Shown here: piece after piece, positions 5,993 to 41,700 of the stretch | How positions within the stretch are numbered: the stretch's first letter is position 1 | Layout of the letters: the number at the start of each line of letters is the position of its first letter | Source: a virus | Taxonomy: Duplodnaviria; Caudoviricetes | IMG/VR virus record: IMGVR_UViG_3300021961_000129 | Coordinates: 1-54,742 of that record | Reading direction: 5' to 3' (one strand) | Length of the DNA: 54,742 nucleotides | Position numbers and translations under genes: made by a program | Notes under the pieces: generated by a model | What the model saw: only the letters and a program-made list of their open reading frames with translations | Databases searched by the model: none | Told to the model about the DNA's origin: nothing

Positions 5993-8900
5993 TCACTCTC
6001 CCTTTAGTTTTTTAATTTCATCACGAAGTTCGTTGATTTGAACTTGTTGTTCTTTAATTGCTTCAATTAGTAATGCAGTTATATTTGAATATGCAACTGA
6101 TTTATGACCATTTCCGTCCGTTGTGACGAGTTCTGGTACAACTTCTTCAACTTCTTGTGCGATGACACCAATTTCAGTTCCGGGGGTCTCAAGTCTTTCA
6201 AACGTTACGCCACGCATGTTGAGAACCTTATCAAGAGCATCTTGAATGGTTTCAATATTCTTCTTGAATCTTACGTCAGAAGAAGCAGTTACGGTTCCTC
6301 CAACCGTCATATTGTTATTTGAAAGATCAATTTGCATGGGCCATACGGAGTTGACCTGTGCAGGAGTTAATGTATCGTTTCCACCACGTTTTACATAGAA
6401 TATACCAGCGTTGTTCTCAATCATTGCTGAGGCACTTGCAGTTGCTCTCAGATAATAGATTGGAGCAGAAGCTCTTAGTTCTACTAAACCTTGTGCAAGT
6501 CTGTTATTTGTGTCAGCAGTAATATCATGAGTAGCTGCTCTGTGAGTTGTTGCGTCAACTCTTGCACCAGTAATGTTACCAGAAGCATCTCTAGCGACAA
6601 TTGTGTTCGCTGTTGCGGCAGTTGCAGAATTTAATCCATCAAGTAAATCAGCACTTAAATTGGTTACGGTAGTTGTTGAAGTAACTGTTAGTGGAGCAGT
6701 TCCAGTTGCAACCGTAGATGTTAAAGTTGTTGCCGAAAGAGCACCAACAAGGGTTAGCGCGCCTGCGCCCGTGAGAGTTGCAGCAAGAGTTGTTCCACCA
6801 TACCACTTAAATGATTGTGTAGTAGTTGGAACTCCAGACCATAAACTACCACTTTCAATACCAAAAGCATAATCCGCAGCAGAAGCGGTAATCGCATTAT
6901 TGAGAACAATCTTAGCGCCAGCACTTCTATTGGTGAATGCAGGTGCAGCCGAACCAGTTGTTCCAAAATCAATCCAGTTACTTGTGGCTCCAGAGAATGT
7001 CAAATCTCCAACTGTTGTTGATCCAGCGGCATTAAGGGTTATTTTACCTGCAGTAAAGTTTCCTGAAGTATCTCTGGCAACAATATTCGCGGTTCCGTTT
7101 GTATAAGTTGAAGAGGATAATAAACCATTATGTAACTGTGCATTTAAATTTGTAACCTCAGTAGTTGAAGTGATTGATAATGGAGCAGTACCTGAAGCAA
7201 TGTTAGAAATTAATCTAGTACCAGTTACTGTGCCTGTAAATGAAGCATTTCCAGAATTTCCGAGAGTAAATACATCAGTTCCACTTGCGTTTCTACCAAT
7301 TAAACTGGTCGTAAACTGTAAATATAGGTTATTTGAAGAGAATTGAATCTTACCAGCCTTTTCTCCAGTCCAAGTTCCAGTAGTGAAAGAGATATCATGA
7401 TTTGCAGCGACTGCTATTGACTGTGTGGTTAATAGTCCCTCTAAAACTGGTGTAGTTGTAAGTGTATATGCAGAACCATTGCCAATAAGTACGGCTCCAG
7501 CAGATGGAGCAGCTGCCAATCCAGTTCCACCTCTTGTTACAGGAATTGTTCCTTGGTGATTAGTAACATCTAAATGATAAGCGGAGTTATTTCCACCCAA
7601 TGTAGCAGCGTCAACATCACCACCAGCAGTAGAAGTTTTAATTTGAATTTGGCCATCACTTCCCACATTAAATGTAGATGTCTTAAATTGAGCAACACCT
7701 AAGGTTGAATATGCATCAATTGTGGGTAGACATCTGTTAAGTCTAATTTCAACATTACCATAATAAGTATTAATTCCAACTCCAAAAGGAGCATTATCTA
7801 CAGAAGTCGCAAAAACTTGAACTGGTTGTGTAGTACCAAATCCAACCGATCCAACTGCCTTAGCCCACTTAGAATCACCTCTTAGATAAGTTTCATTGTT
7901 TGCACTTCCACTACCAGCAAGTCTTGTTGTATTAACAACACCGGATATGATGTTAGAAGCATCAATATCACCACCACCAACTGCTGCCCAGTTTGTAGAC
8001 TCTTGTCCAGATGTATTAACAACATCTGTGAAACTTATATTTTGTTTTGTATAAGAAACAATACCAGTTCCATTGGTTCCCAATGAGATTGGGTCTAAAA
8101 TTAGACCATTAATAGAAGCAAGAGCAGCATTTCTACTTGGATGTAGTGTAAAACTATTTGTGGTTGCAGAACCTACAAAGTAGTAATATCCAGTAGTGAG
8201 TCCAGTTGGTAGTGATCCCACTCCAGCAGCCGCATTAATTTGAACAGGATCTCCCTGCGTAAATCCATGATTAACAAGAATAAGTTGTTGCGTGTTGGTA
8301 ACAACACCAACTCTTGTAAAGGACTGAACACCGGTTCCAGAAGCCGTTAAATCAATTTTAGAATCAGCGCCGACGGCATAGTTTGAGTGAATAGTATAAG
8401 AACCAATTCCGACTTTTTTAACATAATAGATTGTATCTGCAATAAGAGGAGATATTACAGTACCAGTAGTAGTGTATTTAACCGGATCGCCATCACCAAA
8501 TGGTTGGAATGTACTTGTAATTCTATCATTAGTAAAGTCTACATTACCACCGACATCAATACCAGTACCAGTGAAGGAGAAACTGGTACTAATTCCAAGA
8601 TCAGTGGAAATAGCAACTGCATTTCTATCTACAATATAGTCTGGAAGTGCCGTTGTTGGAGCAAATTTTACACCGTTTAAAAGATTAATATAAAGTCTAG
8701 TTTCTACGCTAGCAATTTGAACTGTAAAGTTTGATCCACCAGTTCTACCTCCAATTGGTGTGGGATCATTAACTGTTAATACATCATTAACAGCAAAATA
8801 ACGTCCTCCAGTATTAATAGCAACTGCTTGAACTGTTCCAGCAGCACTAACTGTAATTGTACCAGTAATTCCTGTACCAATACCACTAGCAGTATCAAAT

Positions 8901-11900
8901 CTTACTCCAGTATAAATTCCTGCCTGAGTATATCCAGATCCACCAGTAATATTCTTAAGTGTTAGTGCAACACCTCTAACAAGACCTGTAGTACCATATC
9001 CAACATTAGCAAATGTTAATCCAGTATTTGTTGCAATACCAAGATTGGTATTGACTCCAATATAAGGAGGTCTTGTAACAATACCGGTAACTTCTCCTTG
9101 GTTTAGAACACTCTTAACTACATCACCATCTTCGAAATTATATACAGTATTATTATTTAAAATTAAATATTGAGAATATGTGTCACTAACAAGTACATAT
9201 GGGGATTGTGGTTCAACAACGGTATCACCATTTCCCAGTTTTGTAACTGGAACTTGGTTATGTAGTTGTAGTCTACCAAAGTTATATGGAGTTCTATAAT
9301 AGTTGGAAACTTTTGGTGGAATGAGGTCAGAGTTAATTTGTCCAATTGCATTTAATTGAACAATCGCGTTTGGAATTGCGTTGGTTGATACTGATTTATC
9401 AATAAATCCACCAAGTCTATTATTTAAGAATGTTCTAATAGCTAACTGAGTGGAAACTCTCTTATTAAGTGGTCCTCCTAGTTCATTATCACCCATTCCT
9501 CCATCTGCGGAGAATTCTTCGATCGCAATACCACCAGAAAGTGATAATCTAATAGAATCAAGAGTACCAATGGTTACGGTATTATTAAAGATAATGTTAC
9601 CAGTTCTATTGAATGCAGTAATAAAATCACCAATCTTAAAGTCTCCAAGTTCGTTAGTACCAGATGAGTAAACACGGCCACCTCTTTCACTAACTTGTTC
9701 AGACTTCGTTACTGTTCTACCTCCATTTTGTGGAAGAGCATTATAGTCAATACCTGAACCAGAATATTCCCATGTATGAGAAGAAGAGTTAATAATAGAT
9801 GGTCTGTGCCAGTGTAACTTATAAGTTTCTGGTAGATTTTGAATACCCTGGATTGATTGTCCAGGTAAAGTGGAATCAATCTTGGAATTAGTTGTCCAAT
9901 AACTGGTAATTCCAGCTACAACTGTTACTCCAACTCCAATCGGTGTCTCACTGTGATCTTCTAAATCAAGTACGGTCAATCCATTTGAAACCGCAAAGTT
10001 TCTTCTAGTTCCCTGAGAAAGTTCAACAGAAACGAGTAATTTTCTAGTGGTTTGACTATAAGTAACGGCAATACCGAGGGCTGTTCCGCCGACAACTGTT
10101 TGTGTAATTTCTCTACCAGATACAAAGTTGCAGGTAGTTCCAATACCAGCTGCAAGAGTTAACTCTTGATATGTATTATGTCTATCAATAACGGAAGATG
10201 CGAAGAACTCAAAAGTACTCTTCTGAATAGTATGAATACCAGTAGAAGCAGAAGTTAAATCAACAATTCTTGTTAAACTATCATCTTCAGCAAGTCGGAA
10301 ACTATTAGAATCCACGTAAATAACATAATATTGGTTACCATTAACAAGACCTCCAATAATTCTATTTGGAATTACTTGTTCATCACCAAAGTAAACTACT
10401 GTATCTCCATTACTAAATGGATGACTATTGATATTAATAGTATCCGCAGAAATATTAACTACTCCACCAGCAGTAACTGCAGTTCCAACAAATTCGGAAG
10501 TTACTGGAGATGCCTTAAAGTTTGAAGTTACATCTTGGTTTGCATTGTTAAAGATTCTTGCAACATATAAATCTTGATCAGATCTACCCAAACCAACAAT
10601 CTTCAGAGTAGTTAATCCACCTGAAGTACCAGTTGCAGCAATTCTTCCTCTATCAAAAGCAAATGAATTTGGACTGAATCCAGTAGATCTTAGAGCATAT
10701 AGTCCAAAGTTTGTTGCAGAGTTTGTAATGGATAGATATCCACCAGACTGCGTTAGTGAACCATATCTGCAGAAGATTTGGAAACAAGAAACAACCTGTG
10801 CATAACCATCATTGATAGTTCTCCATCCAATACCACCAAAGGAAACCATGGTAAATGCAGCAGCAACCATGGACTTACCTTGTTCTGGTTGATCGCCAAC
10901 TAGAGGGGTTTCAGCTTCCTGTTTAATTAGAGGAGTGTTGGGTGATTGTACTTTAGAACCATCAACAAGAATACCATTTGCACCTAAGAAAGATAGAATA
11001 GAACAGTTCTGGATATATGGCGATCTTGTAATGAGTGGTTTGTCACTCTTAGTTGCATATCCAATTCTAGAAGTTAGAGAATCATTTGGATCATCAAATG
11101 CTATCGCATAATTCCAAGTACTTAATGGCACACCTGCGGCATCAATACGATCCTTCATTGCAAAACCAGTTACATATACACCATTTCTTACACGGAATAA
11201 ATCTTTGCCGTTATTTAATGGCCTAATAATCGTATTTCTTAAGTTATCGCCAACAATTGCAACGTCATCATATAGAAGAATTGGGTTGTCTTCTATATAT
11301 TCACCAGCTTCAACGATGATGCAAACTGGTTTGGATTGTGTTTGTGGGAATACTTTAGTTGGTGAAGCGGTTGTTCCAAATCCTACGATTGTAGTGATAA
11401 TTCCAACATAGTTAACAATCGCACTTCTTACATCTGCACAATCAGTAAGACCCAAATTAACTGAAGTAATTCCTGACAAACTTCCACTTAATACTGCACC
11501 CGTCAAAATTCCTACCAGAGAATCAATAGTAGAACGAGTGTTTGCACAAACATTTACATTCTTGTTTGTTGATCCAACAGAAACATCATTTTGAATTGTT
11601 AGATCTTGATAATTTAGCCAGTTAACTACTGCACGTTTTGCATATTTTCCTAGACTTGTAAATGCATATGCAGAGGCAACTTCTTCACCTAGTAATCCGT
11701 TTGTCTTTGCAGCACCTGCACCATCAAAGTATCTCTTAGTTGCATAAACAGTATGTTGATTTGTACCATAAGCAACGTCCTGTGCAATAGCATCAACAAT
11801 ATATCCAAGATCTCTAGCACACTTTCTACCGCCAACAACGTTAGTTGATCCAATGCCAACTTCAAATCCAGAAACATTTTTAACATTATATGTTGAATTA

Positions 11901-14900
11901 ACAACAAAATAACCATAATTTGTTGTTGTACCTATTCCAGCAGTACTACCTGAACCGATTGCTGTTGTAACAATTCCGGTAAGAGTAGTAATAGTGGATT
12001 GAACATTAGAACAAGAAGAAGGATCAGTGTTAAATCCTGTTACTGCATCAGCAGTAATGGTTAAATCTCTTTGATTGAGTTGGTTTGTTATAGCCAACTT
12101 CATGTAATCCCTTGCCTTTTCAAATGCATAATTTGATTCTGTTGTCTCACCTACTAGTCCGTTGGTAATTGGTTGACCTAATACGTTAAAATAGAATCCA
12201 GTGAAGGAACGAACGTAGTTATTACCACCGGTAAATACGTCAGTAGCGACTGCCTCAATAAAGAGACTTAGATCTCTTGCACACTTAGTAGATCCAGGAG
12301 AAGATGTGGATCCAATTCCAGAAGTTGCAATTGCGCCTGCAGAACCACTAATTAATAAATTATCAATGTTATAGTAACCAGTGTTTATACCTGTTATTCC
12401 ATTAGAAGTACCGGCACCAATAGTTACTGTAACGATTCCTACGAGAGAATCGATATTAGATCTTACATTTGCACAAGAAAGGGTACTTCTATTATAATTT
12501 GTAAGTGGATCTGGAGTTAAATATAGATTCTGATAATTTAGGTTATTTGTAATTGCCATCTGCATGTATCCAGATGCAGACTTGAATGCATATACGGACT
12601 CGTCTCTTTCTGTGGATCCAATTCCTGTTGGATTTCCGTTACTATAGTAGTAAAGAGCAAACTCTCTAGAATACTTATTACCTCCAGTAAATACGTCAGT
12701 TGCAACAGCATCTACTAAGTATCCTAAATCTCTAGCGCACTTACGTCCTCCTGAAGATCCGGTACTTCCAACGCCAACAGAAGCAAAATATCCATAATTA
12801 GCTGCCGGTAAGGATGAAGTATTTCCTGCTCCAATAGATACTGTTACAATACCTACAAGAGTGGTTACGTTATTTTGAACATCAGTACATGCAATTGTAC
12901 TGGTAACTCCAATAGTCGCACCTCCACTATTGTATAGTGCAGGTCCAGTAGTAATTCCACGGTCTTGGTAATTTAATTGGTTAGATACTGCACCTCTCAT
13001 CAAGGTCATTGCAGATCTAAATGCATAGATTGATTGCGATTCTTCACCTATTAAACTGGTTGTTCCGATACCGGCAAAATAAAATCCGGTAAATTCTCTA
13101 GAGTAACTATTACCTCCAGTAAATATGTCAGCAGAAATAGCATCAACAAAATACCCAAGATCTCTAGCACATTTTTTGAGTCCAACTGGATTTGTTGTTC
13201 CTACACCAACACTAGAACCAACTTCCCATAAATCATAAAGACCTAGATTTATAGCTGGGAAGGTACTAGTATTTCCTGCACCAATTGCAACAGTAGCTAT
13301 ACCAGTTAGAGTTGCGATGGTATTTTGAACATCTGTACATGAAGAAGGACTGGTATTGGAAACATTAGTACCTCCTCCATAAACAGTTGGTCCAGCAGTT
13401 ACTGTTAAATCTTGGATTGTGAGTTGGTTTGAAACTGCGGACTGCATTCCAACTCTTGCTTGATCGAAAGCAAATCTCGTTTGAACTTCTTCACCAGCTA
13501 AACTTGTAGAACCTACACCAACAAAATAGAATCCAGTGAATTCTCTAACGTAGTTGTTGCCTCCTGTAAATACGTCAGCAGAGATAGCATCGACAAAATA
13601 TCCAAGATCCCTCTTACACTTATCTTGTGTAGAAGTTACTTCTGGATATTGATAAACCGTGGCTTCCCAAGCATTATCAATGATTTGTTGTTTGTTTTGT
13701 TGGATTAAACGGTATGCATCTGCATAACGAGATCTTTCCGTTGTTTGAGCTTCTCCTGGTACATAGAAATCGGAATATCCAACGGCTACAGAAGCAAGAG
13801 CCTTATCTACAATTTCTTGTTTGTTCTTCTGAATTAATCTATATCCATCATAATATCTAGATCTAGCATTTGTTTCTGGATCACCTGGGAAATAGAATGG
13901 ATTTGAAGAATCAACATAAACTGCAACAGAAGCAAGAGACTTATCTACAATTTCTCTCTTATTTTCGACAATTAAACGATATGAATCGTAATATCTAGAT
14001 CTTCCGTTTGATGCTGCATCTCCGGGGAAATACCAACTTGAGGGGAAACCTACAGCAACAGATGCAAGAGACTTATCTAAAATTTCTTGATTATTAACTG
14101 TAATTAATTTATGTGCATCGTAATATCTCGACCTTTCATTACTTTCAGTTTCTCCTGGGAAGAAGAATGTTGATCCTACCCCGACAGCAACAGAAGCTAA
14201 AGATTTATCAATAATTTCTTGTCTATTTCTAACTATTAAATTTCTAGCATCTTTTGATCTATGGAAATAATTTGCATTGTTGTTAAGTGGATCGGAAACT
14301 TGGTCATAGTCAAATGATTGAGATACTGTAGTTTGATATAATGTTGGAGGAGTTTGATTGTTAATACAGTATTGAGCAATAAATTTTAAATAGTCTAACG
14401 CAAATATTACTAACTCTTCTTCACCATCAACGTAAGATTCATCTGGATCTGCAACGATATTCCAATAATCAAATCCATTTTCAACTGATTTAGAGTTTCC
14501 ACCAAATCTAACATCATATGCTAGAGCATCAATAGCATTTCCTATTCTCGTTCTAAACGTGGATTGCTCATAATCTGGATAATCTGTAGCAATATTTTCA
14601 AAATTAAATTCTAAGTATGATATTACTTCCTCTTGCATGAAGGTCTTATTGGCATCCAATAAGTCTCCAGCATCAAGATATCTTTGTCCTGGAATTACAA
14701 AACTATCAAAAGAAGCTAACTGAGCAGCTCTCTTAATTGTTCTAACTGGTAGAGATTTGCCATTATAGGCATCATCACCATTTTGTGCGGAAACATAATA
14801 TCTATTTTCAAAAAGACCCGCACCATTAGTAGTAAATCCTAATGTACCATCCGGATTCAATCCTAACAATTGTCCAGCAGTACCTTTAGTTGCTGGTAGA

Positions 14901-16834
14901 GTTAACGTATAGTTAGTTGCAACTCCAGAATTTGAAAGTTCAATTTTTACGGATTTGTCCTGATCATCCAACTGTGTATTAATTCCAACAAAGGTAAGAG
15001 TACTTACACCTACCCTATTAAATGTAGTTATACCTGTATATCTTACATTGGATCCAACTAGATTTGTAATTGTACCAGTATCTGAAATAAAGGTTGAAAC
15101 ACCAGTAATTGTAGCATCATCACCAGAAATACGAATCGATGCACTTCCTACAGTAAGAACACCAGTAATTCTTGCGTCACCTTCAATGATTACGTCAGTA
15201 TTTCCAATACCAACAGTCATACTGCCGATAGTTGCAATACCACTATAATTGATGTCAGAACCATTCAAGTAAGTTATTACACCAACAAATGATTCTAATC
15301 TTTGTATAGTGCCAACTCCAGTTGCATTAAAATAGGTCGCAAAACCAGTATTTGTATATGATGTACTAATAAATGCTGTACCTAATGTTGAGAATCCTAC
15401 TCTAGATGTTGTGGTAACTCCAGAATTTATATAAGCATCACCAATCCAAACTTCATCGATATTACCTACAGTACCAACTCCAGTCGAATAATACAAGTCA
15501 TTAACATAAGCAACACTAGAAACGCCTATAGTAGTAACAACTCCCGAATTTATTCTAGCATTATTAATCCATGCAGTGTCTTGAATATGGACTTCCGTAG
15601 TAACACCTACGTTAATATATGCATTAGTAATTGAGCTTGTCTGGGAGTTGAAACTTGTAGCTATACCCGCGTTTACATTAAGATCGTTTACATTCGCAGT
15701 TTCTATATTGACATCAGTAACGATACCAGAACTTATATAAGCCTGATCTACATGCAAATTTGTTACATTTAAATCAGTTATTATACCAGAAGCAGAATAT
15801 AAATTAGAAACTGATAAATTTGTTGTATATAAATCTGTAATTATACCGGAAGCAGAATATAAATCAGAAACTGATAAATTTGTTGTATATAAATCTGTAA
15901 TTATACCTGAAGATATGAAGGCATTTGTCGAAAGTAAAGTATCCGCTGTCAATCCTGTAATAATGCCAGTAGTAACATATAGATCATCAATATATGCACT
16001 TGAAATTCCTGCTGTTGTTAAAACTCCAACATTTATGTATACATTATCTATAGAAGCTGTTGAAATTCCGGCAGAAGTTATGATTCCAGAATTGACAAAT
16101 AATTCAGCAATATTTGCACTTGAGATTCCAACAGTTGTTAAAATACCAACATTTATGTATACATTATCTATAGAAGCTGTTGAAATTCCGGCAGAAGTTA
16201 TGATTCCGGAATTAATAAAAGCATCTTGTGTGTAAGAAGTTAAAATTCCAGCTTCGCCAATTACAGCTCTAACCGAGTCTAAGAAAGGAGCTATTACCTC
16301 CCCGGCAAGTGTGTCGGTAAAGACAATATCAGCGGTAATTATTCCAACAACATTGTTATGTGGTGATGATACTTCAATGCTGCCGATACCAACTGATAGT
16401 ACTGTTGCACCTACACCGATATAGTCGGAAATTGGTTCAGTAACAAGATAACCTGGTCTAATATTATTTGTAGCAATTCCAGTAATAACATATGGATCAA
16501 GTTCATCCAGAGTACCCTGTCTTACAACTTCTGGATCATAAAATATATTTAAACTTCTTGCCGCTATATTACCCTCAAGAAGAGAGTTACCTACTACTAC
16601 TAATTTATAGTCATTGGTTGTAGTTGTACCAATTCCGATAAAAGCCTTATTTACAATTCCTTGTTCAACAGTTGAGCCAAATCCAGATCCAACTAAATAG
16701 TGACCGCCTGGGTTTACCCCATCATGAACAACCGCTACATCATATGTAGTATCAATAGTTAATTCGCCAACCGCTCCTGTAAAAACCTGATGTTCTGCTG
16801 TGGTTCCTCTTCTAAGCTGTACCTGCTTGGTCAT
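5993..16834 (-). CDS. Giant tail fibre/adhesin (3613 aa): Mtd-like N-terminus, 20-aa beta repeats, pectin-lyase-like domain interrupted by phycobiliprotein-like repeats, C-terminal S74 intramolecular chaperone
   Basis: MTKQVQLRRGTTAEHQVFTGAVGELTIDT (Mtd-N-like); YYVSAQNGDD..PVRTIKRA ... IIVEAGEYIEDNPI..VGDNLR (split pectin-lyase/DUF1565-like start); SDVRFKKNI..IGVIAQEVEEVVPELV..ALLIEAIKE (S74). Confidence 0.9.
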   Translation of the reverse strand: MTKQVQLRRGTTAEHQVFTGAVGELTIDTTYDVAVVHDGVNPGGHYLVGSGFGSTVEQGIVNKAFIGIGTTTTNDYKLVVVGNSLLEGNIAARSLNIFYDPEVVRQGTLDELDPYVITGIATNNIRPGYLVTEPISDYIGVGATVLSVGIGSIEVSSPHNNVVGIITADIVFTDTLAGEVIAPFLDSVRAVIGEAGILTSYTQDAFINSGIITSAGISTASIDNVYINVGILTTVGISSANIAELFVNSGIITSAGISTASIDNVYINVGVLTTAGISSAYIDDLYVTTGIITGLTADTLLSTNAFISSGIITDLYTTNLSVSDLYSASGIITDLYTTNLSVSNLYSASGIITDLNVTNLHVDQAYISSGIVTDVNIETANVNDLNVNAGIATSFNSQTSSITNAYINVGVTTEVHIQDTAWINNARINSGVVTTIGVSSVAYVNDLYYSTGVGTVGNIDEVWIGDAYINSGVTTTSRVGFSTLGTAFISTSYTNTGFATYFNATGVGTIQRLESFVGVITYLNGSDINYSGIATIGSMTVGIGNTDVIIEGDARITGVLTVGSASIRISGDDATITGVSTFISDTGTITNLVGSNVRYTGITTFNRVGVSTLTFVGINTQLDDQDKSVKIELSNSGVATNYTLTLPATKGTAGQLLGLNPDGTLGFTTNGAGLFENRYYVSAQNGDDAYNGKSLPVRTIKRAAQLASFDSFVIPGQRYLDAGDLLDANKTFMQEEVISYLEFNFENIATDYPDYEQSTFRTRIGNAIDALAYDVRFGGNSKSVENGFDYWNIVADPDESYVDGEEELVIFALDYLKFIAQYCINNQTPPTLYQTTVSQSFDYDQVSDPLNNNANYFHRSKDARNLIVRNRQEIIDKSLASVAVGVGSTFFFPGETESNERSRYYDAHKLITVNNQEILDKSLASVAVGFPSSWYFPGDAASNGRSRYYDSYRLIVENKREIVDKSLASVAVYVDSSNPFYFPGDPETNARSRYYDGYRLIQKNKQEIVDKALASVAVGYSDFYVPGEAQTTERSRYADAYRLIQQNKQQIIDNAWEATVYQYPEVTSTQDKCKRDLGYFVDAISADVFTGGNNYVREFTGFYFVGVGSTSLAGEEVQTRFAFDQARVGMQSAVSNQLTIQDLTVTAGPTVYGGGTNVSNTSPSSCTDVQNTIATLTGIATVAIGAGNTSTFPAINLGLYDLWEVGSSVGVGTTNPVGLKKCARDLGYFVDAISADIFTGGNSYSREFTGFYFAGIGTTSLIGEESQSIYAFRSAMTLMRGAVSNQLNYQDRGITTGPALYNSGGATIGVTSTIACTDVQNNVTTLVGIVTVSIGAGNTSSLPAANYGYFASVGVGSTGSSGGRKCARDLGYLVDAVATDVFTGGNKYSREFALYYYSNGNPTGIGSTERDESVYAFKSASGYMQMAITNNLNYQNLYLTPDPLTNYNRSTLSCANVRSNIDSLVGIVTVTIGAGTSNGITGINTGYYNIDNLLISGSAGAIATSGIGSTSSPGSTKCARDLSLFIEAVATDVFTGGNNYVRSFTGFYFNVLGQPITNGLVGETTESNYAFEKARDYMKLAITNQLNQRDLTITADAVTGFNTDPSSCSNVQSTITTLTGIVTTAIGSGSTAGIGTTTNYGYFVVNSTYNVKNVSGFEVGIGSTNVVGGRKCARDLGYIVDAIAQDVAYGTNQHTVYATKRYFDGAGAAKTNGLLGEEVASAYAFTSLGKYAKRAVVNWLNYQDLTIQNDVSVGSTNKNVNVCANTRSTIDSLVGILTGAVLSGSLSGITSVNLGLTDCADVRSAIVNYVGIITTIVGFGTTASPTKVFPQTQSKPVCIIVEAGEYIEDNPILLYDDVAIVGDNLRNTIIRPLNNGKDLFRVRNGVYVTGFAMKDRIDAAGVPLSTWNYAIAFDDPNDSLTSRIGYATKSDKPLITRSPYIQNCSILSFLGANGILVDGSKVQSPNTPLIKQEAETPLVGDQPEQGKSMVAAAFTMVSFGGIGWRTINDGYAQVVSCFQIFCRYGSLTQSGGYLSITNSATNFGLYALRSTGFSPNSFAFDRGRIAATGTSGGLTTLKIVGLGRSDQDLYVARIFNNANQDVTSNFKASPVTSEFVGTAVTAGGVVNISADTININSHPFSNGDTVVYFGDEQVIPNRIIGGLVNGNQYYVIYVDSNSFRLAEDDSLTRIVDLTSASTGIHTIQKSTFEFFASSVIDRHNTYQELTLAAGIGTTCNFVSGREITQTVVGGTALGIAVTYSQTTRKLLVSVELSQGTRRNFAVSNGLTVLDLEDHSETPIGVGVTVVAGITSYWTTNSKIDSTLPGQSIQGIQNLPETYKLHWHRPSIINSSSHTWEYSGSGIDYNALPQNGGRTVTKSEQVSERGGRVYSSGTNELGDFKIGDFITAFNRTGNIIFNNTVTIGTLDSIRLSLSGGIAIEEFSADGGMGDNELGGPLNKRVSTQLAIRTFLNNRLGGFIDKSVSTNAIPNAIVQLNAIGQINSDLIPPKVSNYYRTPYNFGRLQLHNQVPVTKLGNGDTVVEPQSPYVLVSDTYSQYLILNNNTVYNFEDGDVVKSVLNQGEVTGIVTRPPYIGVNTNLGIATNTGLTFANVGYGTTGLVRGVALTLKNITGGSGYTQAGIYTGVRFDTASGIGTGITGTITVSAAGTVQAVAINTGGRYFAVNDVLTVNDPTPIGGRTGGSNFTVQIASVETRLYINLLNGVKFAPTTALPDYIVDRNAVAISTDLGISTSFSFTGTGIDVGGNVDFTNDRITSTFQPFGDGDPVKYTTTGTVISPLIADTIYYVKKVGIGSYTIHSNYAVGADSKIDLTASGTGVQSFTRVGVVTNTQQLILVNHGFTQGDPVQINAAAGVGSLPTGLTTGYYYFVGSATTNSFTLHPSRNAALASINGLILDPISLGTNGTGIVSYTKQNISFTDVVNTSGQESTNWAAVGGGDIDASNIISGVVNTTRLAGSGSANNETYLRGDSKWAKAVGSVGFGTTQPVQVFATSVDNAPFGVGINTYYGNVEIRLNRCLPTIDAYSTLGVAQFKTSTFNVGSDGQIQIKTSTAGGDVDAATLGGNNSAYHLDVTNHQGTIPVTRGGTGLAAAPSAGAVLIGNGSAYTLTTTPVLEGLLTTQSIAVAANHDISFTTGTWTGEKAGKIQFSSNNLYLQFTTSLIGRNASGTDVFTLGNSGNASFTGTVTGTRLISNIASGTAPLSITSTTEVTNLNAQLHNGLLSSSTYTNGTANIVARDTSGNFTAGKITLNAAGSTTVGDLTFSGATSNWIDFGTTGSAAPAFTNRSAGAKIVLNNAITASAADYAFGIESGSLWSGVPTTTQSFKWYGGTTLAATLTGAGALTLVGALSATTLTSTVATGTAPLTVTSTTTVTNLSADLLDGLNSATAATANTIVARDASGNITGARVDATTHRAATHDITADTNNRLAQGLVELRASAPIYYLRATASASAMIENNAGIFYVKRGGNDTLTPAQVNSVWPMQIDLSNNNMTVGGTVTASSDVRFKKNIETIQDALDKVLNMRGVTFERLETPGTEIGVIAQEVEEVVPELVTTDGNGHKSVAYSNITALLIEAIKEQQVQINELRDEIKKLKGE
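11370..14690 (-). repeat. Six nested phycobiliprotein-like protein domains within the tail fibre
   Basis: Five N-halves (RxxDxxxLIxxNxxEIxDKS) in tandem at ~13660-14270, then five C-halves with KC(A/K)RDL (Cys codons near 13617, 13170, 12738, 12282, 11820), all enclosed by an outer domain. Confidence 0.75.
15781..16207. repeat. Near-identical tandem DNA repeats (60-bp and 120-bp periods) in the tail fibre shaft
   Basis: 15781-15840 vs 15841-15900 differ at 2 positions; 16027-16087 is identical to 16147-16207; they encode SGIITDLYTTNLSVSxLYSA / SGIITSAGISTASIDNVYIN repeats. Confidence 0.9.
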
Positions 16835-32737: not shown

Positions 32738-35700
32738 TTAGTTACTTAAAAGTCCCCTTGTTCTAATAACCTTAGGAGAAGTTGATAAACCACTTATTCC
32801 ATTAAGAGTTTCCGCAAAGAATTTAGCTGGCCCACCTTCAGATAAAGATCTATTTTGGAAATCATAAATTTTACCCCAACTATATCTACCATAAAAATCA
32901 TTTGTTCCAATTCCACTATTATTTTCACCCCTCTTATAAACTTTAATATAATTATCGGTCATTGGAGCAAAATGACAGGTAACTGTAACTATTCCAGAAT
33001 TTGGAGTAGTTACATCTTCAACTCTGTATACTCCATCAATAAAAGTCTTTGCAATTCCAATAATTGAATTTGGAAATTGTCCCATTCCTCCCAATAAAGT
33101 GCTTATTCCTATTAGACTTCCACCAGTTAGTACATTGCTGTCGGTAATCACAAAATAATCTCCTTTTTCCAATTGACTATTATTGATACCAAAAGAACTT
33201 AAAGCAGAATACCCTACTCCTAAAGTACTATTATCATAAGTTTCAGATTTTAAAACAAATTCTATCTTTGGTGATGTAGTTCCTATTCCAGGTGTTCCAG
33301 AAATAAAAGTGTTTATTCCAATAATAACTCCATGATCTCCTTTAACTTTTACCGATCTTATACGCTCAGACGAGAATCTGTCGGGTTCTATCATTACAGC
33401 AGGAGGTTCTGATTGCGAATATCCAAATCCTCCATCAATAATAGTTATTGAAGTTACTATTCCTGTAGTAGAGTTGACTCCAGAAACTGCAGTGGCTCCA
33501 TGGACAACTGGTTCTGAATATATCGCAGTGCCTGCGGATCCTACAGCAATGTATCTACCATTTATACCTAAAGAACTATCAAAAACTAAATCTACAATTG
33601 CATTAGGTTGTAATGTTGATCTTGGAACCCAATTCAATAAGTCAAAAGAATAGAATATATTCCCTAAACTGTTAACAACAACGTAAAAACCATAATTGTA
33701 TTTTATGTTGACCAAATCATCGGTTAAATTGGTAGATAAAACTTCATAAGAATCTCTAGTTATAGATCTCAAAATAACACCATTATTTCCAACAATAATA
33801 AATTTATTTTCCGCATATATAACCTTATTTAAATTAGTTACTACGGGACTTTGATTCAATTCCCAAATTAATCCAGTGTTTGAAGAAACTATAGTACCAT
33901 CATTTCCAATTGCTACAAAATAATCTACCCCAAAAGTAACACTATTGAGATCTCTAAGAGTTCTGGAGAACCTGTTTATAAATCTATCCGTATGTATTCC
34001 AGATCCAACAAATATTGATCCTGCAGCTCCAACAGTAACCCAAGTATTGGATGTTGAACTATAAACAATATCATTAAGAGTTCCAGAATAACCACTTATA
34101 CTTTGGCCAGCAACTCCAAAACCAGGAATAGAAATATCAACATATTTGTCTATCTCAGTCCAAGTAGAAATAGTATTCGAATATCCTACCGATTTTGCTA
34201 TTTTTCCAAAAGATCCTACAGAAATAATAATATCAGAGTTTCCAACTCCAACAGAATATAAAGACTTAAAGTTTGTTGTAGCGCCCAATCCGATATTTCC
34301 AGTTTGCCAATTTATACCATCTTCACTGTCTGCATACAAAGAACTATTACCAACAGCAATTACTCTCTTGCCAAAAATTATAGAATTAAATCTAGAAAAA
34401 GTAGTAATTCCGATAATATTGTCAGATCCTTTCCAGTTATAAATTGGATCTTTAATTTTTATAGCAGAGACTGATATGTTAACTACTGGAGAAAGAGAAA
34501 TTCCATATCCAACTCCAGGATATTCTATATTAATTGCAGAAACGGAAGAAGCAGAGGAAACCACGGAAGTTGCTTGAGCTGGTTCAATAACTTTACTATC
34601 AAAGATAACAACATCTCTCAAATCCTCCGACAAACTATCGGTTCCATCAAAGAATGGGAAAACATTATCGACATAAATTTGTGTATCTTCAAGTTCAACA
34701 TTTCTTATTAATGATGCATTTGGTTTTATTATACTCTGCAAACTTGGTCTTGCTTTTGAATATAATGTTCCATTAATTATCCTATCTTTTTTCTGTTTTC
34801 TCCAACGCAATGGTCTATTTTTAGTCGAATCTGTATCAATACCAACACTACTGTAAGTGAATGTATCTAATTGATCTGAAGAAGTTATTTTTTTAACAAC
34901 TCTTTCAAATTGTGTAATATCAAATAGATCATCTGCACTTTCCTCAATAATAATTTCATCTCCGATTTTAATTGTTTTTGGTGGATCCACTTCCTCAACA
35001 TCAATTGATGATCCTCTATAATATAATATGGTACATTTTGATCCTGGTTTTGGTGCCTCTTTAAATGAAACTCTACTTCCTTGGAATGTATAGGCGTCAA
35101 TGGGATTTTGTAATATATCATTAATAAAGATGAAAATATTATTTGTTATATCCAAATCAGACCCAGTAAGTGTTTTAAGACTTAGAATTTGTTTAACACC
35201 ATTTACTTCAACTACTAAACTAAATTTCTTTCGGAATCCATTGAAATTTGAAGAAATATCTTCGAATAGAATAAACTGACCAGGATAGAAGGAATGGAAT
35301 TTATCAGTTTCGACTTCTTCAACAGTAATTCTAAATTCACTAAACCCAACACCAACATTTGGATCTGTTGTTATTCCTGAGACTTTAAGAATATCGCCAA
35401 CTCGATATCCTTTGCCAACCTCATCAAATTTGAATGATATTATACTAGATCCCATACCAACTTCAACAGTAACCTTTGCATCCTGACCAACTCCAGAACT
35501 TCCAGTTATATAAGAAACCGGTAGATTACTATATCCAGTAGGTATACCAATGTTTATAATTGGTAAAGATGTTGATGTATATCCAGAACCAGCATTTACA
35601 ATTGTAAATCCAGTAATTGTACCACCAGAACCAACTGTTGCTGTAAAACTAGCTCCTGTACCAATGGTGGAAGCGATACTAATTGCAGGAGGATTTCGAT

Positions 35701-38700
35701 ATCCACTTCCATTTCCAATAAGTGTTATTGTGGAAATAGTTCCAGAAGCAGAAACAGATACAGTTGCAGCTGCCCCTATTCTTGGTTGATACCCAAATCC
35801 TGTGGTAATTGCAACTTTGGATATTCTTCCTGCAGATGGAGTACCAGATAAGAATCTTATTACATTATTCGGAGTTCCATCAATAGTAAAATCTGATTGA
35901 GGAACTTGGAAAACATTGTTTATAAAAACAAATGGATTATTGCTAATATTTGTTGCACTATTAACATCATTAAATAACACTTCAGTATTTTCACCACCAG
36001 ATTTTAAAGTAAATTCTGTGGCTGCTATTCCTGTAAAAGATAAAGATATATCATCAACTATAATATTTTTATTTTTCGGTTCCGAAGCATCAAAAGATCT
36101 AGAAAAAACTCTTCCCGCAAAAATTGACCCTGTTTGTAGTCCTATTGGTCCTATTTTACCATAAGGAGCTGTACTAAAGTGAATAATATCCTTGACAATA
36201 TTGAAATTACCAGTTAAAACTGTACCAGAAACTCCAACCGTATGAATTCCGGTGTTACTTCCTAAAAATCCTCTTTCAACTTCAACAAAATTGGAAGAAG
36301 TCACTCCAGAAGACTTTACTAACATATACTCTTCACTAAAATTCAAAATATCTCCTGTTTTTAATGAAGATATTCCTGAAGTTATTTCCAAAATTGTTGT
36401 TGATGAAGTAGAAACTGGAGATCCTAGATTTACAATTAAAGATTTTCTCGTTAAAGGGCTTTGAACTACACCATCAACAGATATTATTGAACTGCTGTTT
36501 GGATCTTTATAACTAAATATATGATTCCCTGTACCAAGTCCAGTAATATCTAGAGTTGTACCAGAAGTAGATAATCCAAAAAGTCTAAATTGATTATCAT
36601 TTAATTTAAAGACAAATAGTGACTTAGGAAGTACATTTGTTCCCAATTCTGAAGGACTGAAGGATACATAGTCATTTGTAGATCCCCCAAGATATGTACC
36701 AGCAACAGATATTATAGACGTATATGCATATCCAGAAGCTCCATATACTACTTTTACATCCGAAATATAACCAGAATTATTTCTAGTTATATTAAATAAA
36801 GATCCACTAAGATCTGTAGAAGGCACATTTGTATAAACTTCATTTGCTCTAGTTTGAATTCCTGTAGGTCCGACTTTCGAAACAACAAAACTGAGATCGT
36901 TTGTTGGTGAACTCCCTCCCAAATAAGTTCCGGCTACAGAAACTACATCACCAACAGAATATCCTTCACCACCAGAAACTAAAACTAAAGAAGTTGAAAT
37001 TGGTTGGCCGGTAGTAACATTATAAGAAATGAAAGCATTAAATTTAGCATCTGTACCTATTCCACTTGTGGCCAATCCAACAACTTGGAGATATTCTCTA
37101 AAACTTGGCCCAGCAGGAACAAGTACTGTAGATATTCCCGTTATAGATGTTTGTATAGCTACTGGATATCCTTGTTCCAATATTGCAGTTCCTGTTAAAT
37201 TGGAGTTATCGATATTCATTAAAACAGAAGTAATACCAATAACATATGAAGTTGTGGCGATTCCAATAGGACTTCCATCTGTTTCATATATTAATTCGTG
37301 ACCTGTTTGGAAATTGTGATTTGGAACAACAAAGGTATTTGTTTCTGATGATATTCCATTAACACCAGAATTAGAAGATTCGATAATATGGCTAAAGAGT
37401 GGAGTTCCTTTATTTTTTAATTTAAATGTACTTAGTCCAACTATTTGACCACCTCTGGTTAAAGATGGATAAATTATGGAACTTGGTGCTGCAGTAGTTC
37501 CAATTCCAATTATTGATGTTATTATTCCAACATAATTTCCTATTGCAGTCCAAACATCAGCACAACAATTTTCACTATACGTAGGACTACAAACTTCATC
37601 AGATAAAATTCTAGAATCTATATATTGTGTAGTTGAAATAAAAGCTCTTTGAATTGAACCGCCATTTACATAATTATGTGTTATAGTTGATGGTCCTGGA
37701 TTTATTCTAAATCTTGTGGAATCAATAATTTCAACTTCATAAACAAATCCTTTTGGAGACAATGGACCATTTCCATCTGGACCATTCCCCAAATTCGGGA
37801 AAATAGCTGTGTTTATTCCGCCGCCAGAATCACAAGAAAATACCAAATCTTTCAACACAACATAATTTTTTGTTGTAGTAGAAAGTCCATGACTAGTTGT
37901 GGTTCCTACAGTAGCGATACCAGTTATGTTATTATAAACAACAGAAGAAACTCCAACAGTATTTGCAAGTTGATATGATGTTTTCACACCAACGTTATTG
38001 ATAATATATTTCGATAAATCTACGATATATTTGAATCCAGATATAGTTTCTATAGTTTCTCCACTTACGTAATTTGTGCCAATTCCACTCCAATAAGCTA
38101 ATCCAGCTTCTATTGATTTATTGTTTGATTTATATTTAACATCATGAGAAACTGCATCGATAATATATCCAACATCCCTTTTACAAATACTTCTATCCCA
38201 GTCAATATTTGTAGTTATTCCTGGATAAGTAGCTGTGATAAATCCAACAACTTCTTCCATGATAAAATCTCTATTTGACTGAAGTAAATCGGAAGCATCA
38301 GCATATCTACCATCTACTTGCTGTAAAGAAGATCCATCAAATTGATCCGATATATCGTCAATTCTAAGAACTTTATTTGTTTTATTAAGAATAAATGGTC
38401 TTAGATTGATTCCATCATTAAAATAAACCGATTCTACGGAACCATCTTCTAAAGTAGTATCTTCATACACTCTAACAAAATTTGGCCTATCATACATAGA
38501 AATTTCATTATCAAGATTAATACTTAAAGAAGAATCAGTTTGTAATATCTTAGGCTTCATGTTAGTTGAATTGGAAGATCCAACAACTGTAGGTTCAGTA
38601 TAAATTACAAGATCGGAAAACTCTTTAAATCCTGAAGGGTGTACTGTAGATCTTACAGATTCTCTCCATATGTTATATGGAACATCGCTCTTTATAGAAT

Positions 38701-41700
38701 AAGAAAATTTCTGATAATAAAAATTATCGGAAATTCTTTGTTGATAATCATTCAAAATTCCAACAGCATTATCAACTGAAGAAACCTTGTCTCTAAATGG
38801 ACCTAAAGTTGATTTTAAATCAAATATATTGAAATATTCAACAACCCCTTCAATTTTTGAATTTTCCCCATAAATTTTATCACCAACACTTAATGCACCA
38901 AAACAATCATTCAACCTAAGTTGATTTAATTTGTTATCCCAACCGTTCTCCATTACAACGGCACTAAAAGTTCTGGAAGTAACTTTTTCTGTTGACTTAT
39001 AACTGGCCTCATCATTTAAAACCATTTCTAAAATAGGCATATCTTTTTTATTGATTACAATGCCTAAGTTTAGTTCATCATTATAAACTCCAAATGTTCC
39101 GGTGGATATTCCGGACATGTCATATGTCAAAGTATTATTTGATGTGTTTACACCTACAACAGGGAAAAATGCGTAATTATATGAAGATGAATTAAAATTG
39201 GCATCTGATTTAGTTTCAGAAGTTAATCTGCAATTTTCTATAAAAATTTCATCTCCAATTGAAAATGGAAATTTCACTTCAGTTGATCCATATCCAGTTG
39301 TTATCAATGGGTTAGATCCTGGAGTATTACTTAATTCTAAAGTAACTAATGAGGAAAGATATGTAATATTATCAATTTCATATCCGTTAGAATTTCTAAT
39401 TGAAATAATTTCCAGAGGTGACCCTAGAGATGTTGAATTTTGAACTATATCAACTTTAGAAACGGATCCATTGTTCAGATAAGATCTAAGTTTTATATTA
39501 GGATTATCCTTAACTAGTAATTCTGGTGGATTATTATATTTTACTCCCCCGGATATAATTTCAATTTTTTCAATAGTTCTAATATCTTTTATACCACAAA
39601 CTGTAGGAACACTAAGTCTTGGAGATAAAGTAGGATCTGTAGGATAATCAAATCCATCTTTAATTCTTTCATAGGAGGCTACTCTACCAATTTTTGGAGA
39701 TATTAACTGAATTACAGCATTGATTCCATTTGAAGTATTAATTTCTTTAATAAATGGAAGTTTTTTGTATCCTCTGCCTCCAAAATTAATTCTTAGATCA
39801 TGAATAGGACCGGAAGCAGATAGAGAATTTGTAGTATATGTATATTCGCTAGAATTTAAGCTCGTAAGTTCAAAGTAATCCAGTTCCTTGTTAATGTTAA
39901 AAGATAATTTTTTATTATCCACAACATTTATAATAAACTTGGAATTTAATGAGTGGTTTACTATTTTTACTTTATTATTTCCAAAAACAGTAGTATCAAA
40001 ACTTAATTGTTTTTTCGATTCTTCAACTGGATTTTTAGAAACTAAATTATAATAAAATACAGCAGGAAAATGTTTATTTGAAGTATCTAAAGTAACATAA
40101 GCCTGACTATTTCCAGGAGTTCCATTTCTAACTATAGCAAAAGTATCATCAACAGATCCAATGATATCTAGCCTTCTTGAACATTGAGAATCGGAATAAA
40201 AATTCAAATCCAAATCTAAAAGACTAGAATCGGATAAATCAAATTTAATAATACTGCCTTTGAAAAATTCTAATGGAGGATTAATAAAATAAAGTTGCTG
40301 AGAAGATGATCCAGTAGAAGAAAATATTATGTTATTGGATTTTTTAATATCACTTTCAAAAGCACATAACTTTATTTTATTAAAATCTTCCTTTAAAACA
40401 TAATAAATTCCTCCATTTAATAATCCATTTATTGGAGTAGATGCAAAGTAAACTACCTTATCACCTGTTTTTACTTTTATATTAGAAGAAGACAAGTCAA
40501 TTGTACTGTCTTGTCCATCCATTACGTCCGAGTTGGAAAAAATTATCTCATTTGCTAATAATTTTCTATTAATTGCATCATATTTTAATTTTACTTCATT
40601 GGTAGAAGTACTTAATATTTTAAAGTCAATAGAATCACCAGATGACAATTCATGATTTTCAGAAGTAGTTACTATTCCAGAAGATCTCTGTAGTATTCCT
40701 TTTATTTGTGGGTTTACTGTTGCGAGAGAATGAGCATATCCTATAACACCAAAAGCCTCGGTCAAATTCCAAAATTCCAAAGAATTAAAGTTTGTACCAA
40801 TTCCTGAAGAAGTTGTAAATCCTAATGTAGACAATCCGACATAATTTTTACCAAGATTTACAGCATAAACTTTCTGATTTTGTTCTAATTTAAAAGATAT
40901 TCCAGAACCAACATTGTTTACATATAAAGAAGTTCCTGCTATTCCTGGATGATAAATTAATTCTTGACCTGTAAAGAATTTATGTCCAGGTAAGTATATA
41001 CTTCTTTCAGGAATAAACCTGGATTCTATAGAAGAAGTACCTAATCCAACAATACTTCTTACTACGCCTGCAGTTCCTGTACCGACAGATTCTTTTGGAT
41101 CAAAAAATGTTACTTTATTTTCTAAACTAAGATCATTTGTTAAATTTTCTATTTTAAACTCAAATGTTTTTGGTAATAGTGTAACGCTTTCTATACCAAC
41201 AGTATGAACTCCTGTATTTTCTAATCTATTTACATAAAATCCAGATTTCTGAGATGATACTCTAGTAATTAATAATCTTTCTGTTCCTATTCCTATAAAA
41301 TCATTGTCATTAAATCCACTAACATCTTTTACTGATATAAATGTGGAAACTCCAGTATTGGCTTCAATATCAATATTTTCTAAAAGATCTACTGTTTTAT
41401 TAACAACTTTAATCTTTCTAAGACCCTCTAAAGAAGAAGCTGTAATTGTAGATATTCCAGAAATCAAAATAATTTCATCATTTACAAGACCATGAGGAGA
41501 ATCGCAAATTCCTGTAACTTTTGTACCTCTAACAATAAAAGATATATTTTCGATTTTCTCATTGTTAATAGAAAACTGAGAAACTTCCTTACCTTTAACT
41601 TCAGAAACTACAATATTAGCTCCTGTACCTTCAGTTTCAGTATTATCTAAAACTACAAAGTCATTAACTTTATATCCAGTCCCTGGTGAAAATATTGATA

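Follow-up and report, generated by a model that had tools for sequence, protein, structure and literature searches.

Phycobiliprotein subunits have a globin-like set of helices (A, B, E, F, G and H), and helix E opens with K-C-x-R-D-[IL]-G-Y-[YF], features shared by the viral units described below. The core-membrane linker ApcE has one phycobiliprotein-like domain with a loop insertion (the PB-loop). Photocobilins, which are bilin-binding globin-like photoreceptor domains, are also among the closest known systems, as are T4-type and other trimeric phage fibres that carry a Peptidase_S74 (S74) domain. To our knowledge, no described phage fibre carries light-harvesting-protein folds. The present analysis concerned such folds in a 54,742-nucleotide stretch of viral DNA (Duplodnaviria; Caudoviricetes), comprising positions 1 to 54,742 of IMG/VR record IMGVR_UViG_3300021961_000129. 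This stretch, hereafter the window, is the whole record of a virus of marine cyanobacteria, with an estimated completeness of about 25% of a genome. On its minus strand, a giant open reading frame (ORF) encodes a protein of 3613 amino acids (aa) that contains an array of phycobiliprotein-like units. An original prediction, made from the sequence alone, had described this region (11370-14690) as phycobiliprotein-derived domains with two bilin-attachment cysteines inside a cyanophage tail fibre. The predicted range was nearly right:

5993..16834, minus strand: tail-fibre ORF P0001, with an Mtd_N-type N-terminus, an S74 C-terminus and matches to PHROG tail-fibre families
11369..14674, minus strand: whole phycobiliprotein-fold array (aa 721-1822), one degenerate outer copy predicted to surround five nested copies

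Pfam searches of the ORF product identified an Mtd_N-type N-terminus (PF18454, aa 5-40, E 2.2e-9) and a C-terminal Peptidase_S74 intramolecular chaperone (PF13884, aa 3519-3571, E 2e-15). The product also matched the PHROG tail-fibre families phrog_5342 (E 8.9e-223) and phrog_4527 (E 1.4e-178). These ends and family matches, which are shared with T4-type and other trimeric S74 fibres, identify the product as a predicted phage tail fibre of the S74 class.

Homology of the fibre units to phycobiliproteins

The Pfam family PF00502 (Phycobilisome protein) matched the whole fibre with a score of 24.5 bits (cut-off 22.2, E 2.9e-5) over aa 1036-1098 and profile positions 30-101 of 155, and matched the N-half piece of the array with 24.8 bits. 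When a single unit was compared with 177,635 distinct Protein Data Bank (PDB) sequences, 22 of the 24 matches (E <= 10) were phycocyanin alpha chains. The top 20 were all C-phycocyanin alpha, with a best E of 0.0034 and with Cys84 aligned to the first conserved cysteine of the unit (Cys1). All 57 PDB matches of a profile built from the innermost units, 22 in all, of the window and of related viral contigs (profile A2; best E 1.4e-4) were phycobiliproteins or proteins engineered from them, and also took in allophycocyanins, phycoerythrocyanin beta and phycoerythrin alpha. For profile-profile comparison by hhalign, cpcBA loci from cyanobacterial genomes provided alignments of 24 CpcB and 24 CpcA sequences. 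The phage unit aligned with CpcA over 85 columns with a probability of 94.2% (E 1.1e-7).

For a segment spanning two levels of the nest (aa 967-1364), an AlphaFold model built without templates from a 21-row alignment reached a predicted local distance difference test score (pLDDT) of 76.9 and a predicted template modelling (TM) score (pTM) of 0.81; for the single innermost unit, these values were 82.9 and 0.82. The predicted fold was globin-like, with helices A-H, and Foldseek lists were filled with phycobiliproteins at TM scores of 0.55-0.75. By sequence the unit was most like CpcA, and by fold most like the beta chains of phycoerythrin and phycocyanin. Because four independent lines (Pfam, PDB sequences, profile-profile comparison and fold) all agreed, we regard it as close to certain that the units are phycobiliprotein homologues, derived from a cyanobacterial gene that was captured by an ancestor of the T4-like cyanophages and then used as a virion module. 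The same four lines bear out the earlier description of the units as globin-fold, phycobiliprotein-derived domains. A helical repeat that resembles phycobiliproteins by chance or convergence was rejected as an explanation and is exceedingly improbable, in view of the uniform outcome of the PDB profile search (57/57), the hhalign E of 1.1e-7, the fold matches and the precomputed PF00502 matches on most of the homologues listed. Such automatic Pfam matches are already present in databases.

Several observations weighed against this homology or limited its extent. The PF00502 score was marginal, with the isolated innermost unit (21.0 bits) below the 22.2 cut-off, and none of the four outer C-halves or the degenerate copy (0/5) matched this family. 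Sequence likeness was confined to helices B-E, leaving the C-terminal half without detectable likeness, and hhalign comparison with CpcB gave a probability of only 29.3% (E 5.8e-4) over an alignment that ended before the region of the second conserved cysteine (Cys2). Foldseek E values were at best 0.039 and 0.0044, and never 0.001 or lower. In addition, the N-terminal X/Y helices of phycobiliproteins were absent, the unit beginning at chain residue ~29-32 of the matched proteins. In the two-level model, a helix of the outer domain occupied the X/Y place (alignment rows pairing model residues 39-219 with chain residues 7-177).

The phage units thus differ from cellular phycobiliproteins in several respects. 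Without the X/Y hairpin, no alpha-beta pairing of the known kind is expected. The loop between helices B and E is shorter or accommodates an entire further domain, the C-terminal half can no longer be recognised from its sequence, and the unit has its own invariant set of Asp, Asn, Tyr, Glu and Asn. Moreover, the units occur in a virion fibre, with 3 to 23 per chain, instead of in a phycobilisome, and (alpha-beta)3 discs are not expected.

Nested arrangement of the units

The motif K-C-[AK]-R-D-L occurred exactly five times in the fibre ORF (aa 1072, 1221, 1365, 1517 and 1671). As predicted, all five copies fitted the longer pattern through (GG/GT)N, and in each unit a second cysteine, Cys2, opened the last helix (aa 1166, 1316, 1454, 1608 and 1763). 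An extra Cys-opened helix, D-C-A-D-V-R, was located at aa 1799. Upstream of the Cys1 motifs, five N-half helices were repeated (aa 857, 901, 945, 991 and 1034), and the helix that the original prediction had quoted as preceding the motif (aa 1043-1068) was the fifth of these. The parts of the array were as follows:

14357..14674, minus strand: outer degenerate copy ("domain 0"; aa 721-826), helices A/B and E-G, with a partial hidden Markov model (HMM) match that starts past the Cys1 column
13634..14266, minus strand: five N-half helix pairs (helices A/B), N1-N5 (aa 857-890, 901-934, 945-978, 991-1024 and 1034-1067)
13265..13735, minus strand: innermost contiguous domain, N5 plus C1 (aa 1034-1190)
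12815..13189, minus strand: C-half 2 (helices E-H; aa 1216-1340), partner N4 by split-pair fold, with Cys1 at aa 1222 and Cys2 at aa 1316
12401..12757, minus strand: C-half 3 (aa 1360-1478), probable partner N3 by bracket order, with Cys1 at aa 1366 and Cys2 at aa 1454
11939..12301, minus strand: C-half 4 (aa 1512-1632), probable partner N2, with Cys1 at aa 1518 and Cys2 at aa 1608
11474..11839, minus strand: C-half 5 (aa 1666-1787), probable partner N1, with Cys1 at aa 1672 and Cys2 at aa 1763
11369..11446, minus strand: orphan Cys-capped helix (aa 1797-1822; Cys at aa 1799), putative helix H of domain 0

In the innermost domain, Cys1 was at aa 1073 (window 13616-13618) and Cys2 at aa 1166 (window 13337-13339). 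Domain 0, which would be a split domain, showed F-x-T-R at the C-x-R-D positions and retained the later D...GGN motif.

When N-halves and C-halves were written as letters, with the degenerate copy first, the fibre read N C N N N N N C C C C C, which is not an alternating tandem. Balanced bracket words of this type were found in 109 of the 121 homologues; 20 homologous proteins had the word N10 C7 N2 C5, and related viral loci read NNNCCC, NNCC and NNCCNNCC. Balanced words such as N10 C7 N2 C5 are predicted by recursive insertion and would not be predicted by two separate repeat arrays. Each N-half pair would open one nested domain, and in the two-level model the N4 and N5 helices had pLDDT values of 88-97. 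When N4 (47 residues) and C2 (158 residues) were folded as two chains, the interaction prediction score from aligned errors (ipSAE) was 0.65 (runs 0.57-0.69), against 0.00 for the best control. Scores at this mark were obtained for 58 of 80 solved complexes and for 2 of 110 mismatched pairs, counts that are a rough reference because a custom alignment was used for the N4-C2 fold. Contact agreement between runs was at least 68% and partner pLDDT at least 59. The interface lay on helices E, G and H of C2, matching the role of the A/B hairpin in the phycobiliprotein fold. This modelled outcome supports the pairing and may in part mirror the likeness to solved phycobiliprotein folds.

We consider it highly probable that the B/E loop of each domain holds the next complete domain, which separates the A/B hairpin of the outer one from its helices E-H, with this nesting continuing five deep within the loop between helices G and H of the sixth, degenerate copy. 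Placement of the nest in the G/H loop of domain 0 is suggested by the orphan helix (aa 1797-1822) and by the related loci (alignment A1), in which the same Cys-capped tail helix followed the nest. The bracket words and the N4-C2 fold also bear out the earlier proposal to splice each N-half to a C-half around one contiguous innermost domain. Because the modules are nested, the polypeptide would run outward along the N-halves and return along the C-halves. About six beads would thus be strung on a chain whose exit from the fibre and return to it lie at the same point.

In cells, ApcE provides a far more modest precedent. Its chains matched the units over ranges of ~190 residues with only 118-127 aligned residues, a gap that we take to be the known PB-loop insertion in the same region. 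Whereas ApcE has one domain with a loop insertion, the phage array shows recursive insertions of the same domain, five deep, plus a probable second insertion site in the G/H loop. Unit numbers ranged from 3 to 23 per homologous protein, with nesting up to ten deep in relatives. Such extreme recursive domain insertion could represent a design principle for rigid protein rods. In three homologues (P0059, P0061 and P0108), 21-23 C-x-R-D units with a spacing of ~108 residues were accompanied by few recognisable N-halves and by unbalanced words. Several of their units were without Cys2, and these proteins may represent a more compact tandem form of the module.

Candidate bilin sites and rival explanations

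In the alignments, the columns of Cys1, Arg and Asp coincided with Cys84, Arg86 and Asp87 in CpcA and with C82, R84 and D85 in CpcB, and ApcF likewise matched column by column. The equivalence to Cys84, Arg86 and Asp87 that the original prediction had drawn from the phycocyanin sequence was thereby supported by the PDB, CpcA and CpcB alignments, and the CpcA string K-C-A-R-D-I-G-Y-Y was encountered both in PDB chains and in cyanobacterial loci. The predicted equivalence of Cys2 to beta-Cys155 held in part. In the CpcB alignment, C82 and C153 were invariant, the latter within G-D-C-S. Cys2 was residue 200 of the model, directly before the last helix (H, residues 201-220), and 11 fold-alignment rows ended with model residue 219 paired to residue 172 of phycocyanin beta, which is 19 residues after Cys2, just as C153 precedes the end of the 172-residue CpcB by 19 residues. 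If the last helix is ungapped, Cys2 would fall on residue 153. Judged from these alignment ranges and not at residue level, correspondence of Cys2, which caps helix H, to beta-Cys153/155 is plausible. No sequence match accompanied this fit, and since the unit was alpha-like by sequence (CpcA 94%, CpcB 29%), the equivalence is positional only. T-type lyases act at the beta-Cys153/155 position, according to the excerpted text of PMC10452541.

Conservation was assessed in 121 homologous giant proteins, which contributed 634 unique near-full units. In these units, Cys1 was conserved in 100%, Arg in 95%, Asp in 100% and Cys2 in 97%. Both cysteines were thus retained in homologues. Five further polar positions were 94-100% conserved. 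Among 685 complete units collected with iterated profiles, 631 had both cysteines, 54 had Cys1 only and none had Cys2 only, and domain 0 retained the Cys2-type helix without Cys1. An obligate intradomain disulfide between Cys1 and Cys2, which the original prediction had named as a finding that would count against bilin binding, was rejected as unlikely because the two cysteines vary independently (54/685 units with Cys1 alone; domain 0 with Cys2 alone). Degenerate copies of helix E were compared in this protein and ten relatives, the 11 usable cases among 19 partial matches, of which the other eight began too late in the profile. In 11 of 11, Cys, Arg and Asp were replaced jointly and the adjoining D...GGN motif was retained. 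By this pattern of substitution, the two cysteines vary independently and the C-x-R-D triad behaves as one functional unit. The pattern fits a ligand site that is either retained whole or given up whole.

The phycobiliprotein gene that an ancestor of the T4-like cyanophages almost certainly took up was by sequence closest to alpha-type CpcA or allophycocyanin. Helices A-H of its product, a globin-like core that lacks the X/Y hairpin used for dimerisation, became a module of giant fibre and baseplate proteins. At Cys1, which corresponds to the Cys84 site, the five intact units may have retained covalent binding of a linear tetrapyrrole, the pigment being held by Arg and Asp. We assign a rough probability of 0.45 to this reading, which makes the five units candidate sites. 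A second pigment would probably be attached at Cys2, at the beta-Cys153/155 site. The pigment would be made in the infected cell by host or phage enzymes, with the phage T-type lyase CpeT as the natural candidate for Cys2. Since five copies retain pigment-attachment residues, virion pigment and light sensing are now testable.

Some features of the units speak against a retained pigment. In phycobiliproteins, the pigment at Cys84 is covered by the B/E loop. This loop was 9-11 residues shorter in the innermost unit, and in the outer units it was replaced by a whole inserted domain. The near-invariant Asp (+14), Asn (+20), Tyr (+30), Glu and Asn had no counterpart in CpcA and suggest a different, self-contained internal network. 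Both features are compatible with a pigment-free structural module, in which a rigid, nestable bead would lengthen or branch the fibre, and Cys, Arg and Asp would serve folding, helix capping, or inter-domain or inter-chain disulfides in oxidising sea water. The number of units per protein (3 to 23), which resembles that of spacer repeats, points in the same direction, and no report of coloured particles was found in the literature searched. No Cys84-site lyase is known in these phages, for whose clusters A and B only T-type lyases are given in the excerpt of PMC10665884. Such a module is the main rival reading and is possible, at clearly less than even odds. Structural repeats rarely hold a polar C-x-R-D at 100/95/100% over 634 units that are otherwise ~50% identical. 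The joint loss of the triad from all 11 degenerate copies compared, which nonetheless fold as part of the array, and the 54 of 685 units with Cys1 but without Cys2 also argue against residues kept for structure or for an obligate Cys1-Cys2 pair. Furthermore, the two bilin sites of phycocyanin lie on different faces of the phycobiliprotein fold, which likewise counts against a pigment-free role.

The five further near-invariant polar residues beside C-x-R-D, together with survival of D...GGN after loss of C-x-R-D, which indicates two separable motifs, could also reflect a pocket for another ligand. The pocket might then hold a metal ion or a ligand from the host surface, or contain a covalent cross-link within the domain formed by the invariant Cys, Asp, Asn, Tyr and Glu, and the domain would serve receptor binding or fibre stabilisation. 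This alternative is improbable. No known family with such chemistry was matched, the residues shared with phycobiliproteins are exactly those that hold the pigment, and another ligand would explain neither why the domain is confined to phages whose hosts make bilins nor why it is linked with CpeT.

Distribution, CpeT and light-dependent adsorption

A single unit matched 263 of 50,697 phage records, all of which were cyanophages (Synechococcus 188, Cyanophage 58, Prochlorococcus 16, Marine 1), and the domain-bearing proteins were annotated as short tail fibre, tail protein, gp7 or structural protein. The family comprised 1307 cluster representatives (E <= 0.001) among 1.84 billion proteins. At nucleotide level, a megablast search of the region against the same 50,697 phage records gave no match. 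A degenerate-pattern scan of 185,579 species genomes, based on alignment A1, gave 13 pattern matches and no relatives; as the patterns were narrow, this is weak evidence of absence from cells. Among 204 matches of 730-1920 aa, inspected for stand-alone short forms, all 120 listed were multi-unit proteins, with no single-domain bridge to cellular phycobiliproteins. Two homologues (P0200 and P0228) were labelled in NCBI as "Candidatus Nanopelagicaceae bacterium" metagenome-assembled genomes; the contigs are probably of phage origin, having been placed in the bin of a freshwater actinobacterium, and hint at the module in freshwater cyanophages. No paper on phycobiliprotein-like domains in phage structural proteins was found in the literature searched, which excluded subscription journals and supplements. 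As a virion part, a light-harvesting fold would represent a new kind of host-gene capture, structural instead of metabolic.

The original prediction had suggested a check for cpeT, pcyA and pebS in the rest of the genome. Neither CpeT nor a bilin reductase was found in the window, which covers ~25% of a genome. Presence of the domain and of CpeT was compared in 22 reference records, seven of which were set aside (T7, one P-SSM2 duplicate and five podoviruses) and contained neither. Of the 15 distinct T4-like cyanomyoviruses, ten contained both the domain and CpeT, two the domain only (S-ShM2 and P-SSM7), three neither (P-SSM2, S-SM2 and S-SSM7) and none CpeT only. This co-occurrence corresponds to a one-sided Fisher p of 0.022, a value that ignores relatedness. 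CpeT was detected in 2 of 41 related IMG/VR contigs, a count that says little since these contigs were 4-77% complete. In P-SSM4 (AY940168.2, 16642-17064), a 148-aa ORF matched CpeT (PF06206, E 2.4e-10); the excerpt of PMC2984593 states that cpeT was not found in P-SSM4.

Three loci shared a same-strand order of cpeT, a 2-oxoglutarate-Fe(II) (2OG-Fe(II)) oxygenase gene and the giant domain-bearing gene:

S-PM2, LN828717.1, 154408-167723, one strand: cpeT, oxygenase, giant gene
Syn1, GU071105.1, 19938-33236, one strand: cpeT, oxygenase, giant gene
IMG/VR contig L040, 1125-13826, one strand: cpeT, oxygenase, giant gene

The oxygenase between cpeT and the giant gene might take part in fibre modification. 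In the other scored genomes, cpeT was at least 50 kb from the domain-bearing gene. In Syn1, the gene for the gp12 short tail fibre came next after the giant gene.

According to the excerpt of PMC6628666, darkness prevented adsorption of P-HM1 and P-HM2 but not of P-SSM2 or the podovirus P-SSP7, and light-dependent adsorption is cited for Synechococcus phages, in S-PM2 independently of host photosynthesis. The domain was present in the three phages thus described as light-dependent (P-HM1, P-HM2 and S-PM2) and absent from P-SSM2 and P-SSP7, a comparison of five phages only. A pigmented arm acting as a light sensor that gates adsorption is, in our judgement, an unlikely step beyond pigment attachment. 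We would give no better chances to the full scenario, in which virions carry covalent phycobilins on the nested arms, ho1, pebS, pcyA and cpeT serve at least partly for virion pigmenting, and the arm is the photoreceptor of light-dependent adsorption. Weighing against a functional link with CpeT, no significant CpeT match was found in two of the 12 domain-bearing myoviruses, nor was the gene present in the window. Moreover, the three phages that lack the domain could all belong to a single related group, and the association is therefore anecdotal. Three questions become testable: how far domain insertion can go, the reason why cyanophages carry bilin-synthesis genes and a lyase, whose benefit is puzzling above all in Prochlorococcus phages, and the cause of light-dependent adsorption that in some cyanomyoviruses is independent of host photosynthesis. 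The present analysis adds the bracket statistic, evidence that the two cysteines are lost independently and that C-x-R-D is lost as a block, the split-pair fold and the 15-genome table.

Outside the array, the N-terminal third of the fibre (aa ~190-560, window ~15150-16270, minus strand) contained many short repeats of ~20 residues each, rich in Gly, Ile, Thr and Ser. The flanks of the array (aa ~690-720 and 1825-2330; window ~14675-14760 and 9845-11362, minus strand) resembled a right-handed beta-helix that starts before the array and continues after it. Such a domain may thus be interrupted by the array, an unverified impression; aa 1825-2330 and the stretch preceding the array gave no Pfam or PDB sequence match. 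A precomputed PF07602 match was present in one homologue only (P0201). A second giant ORF in the window (32738-45901, minus strand, 4387 aa) contained one phycobiliprotein-like unit at ~37478-38308, with C-x-R-D at aa 2573 and HMM matches at aa 2572-2658 and 2750-2808.

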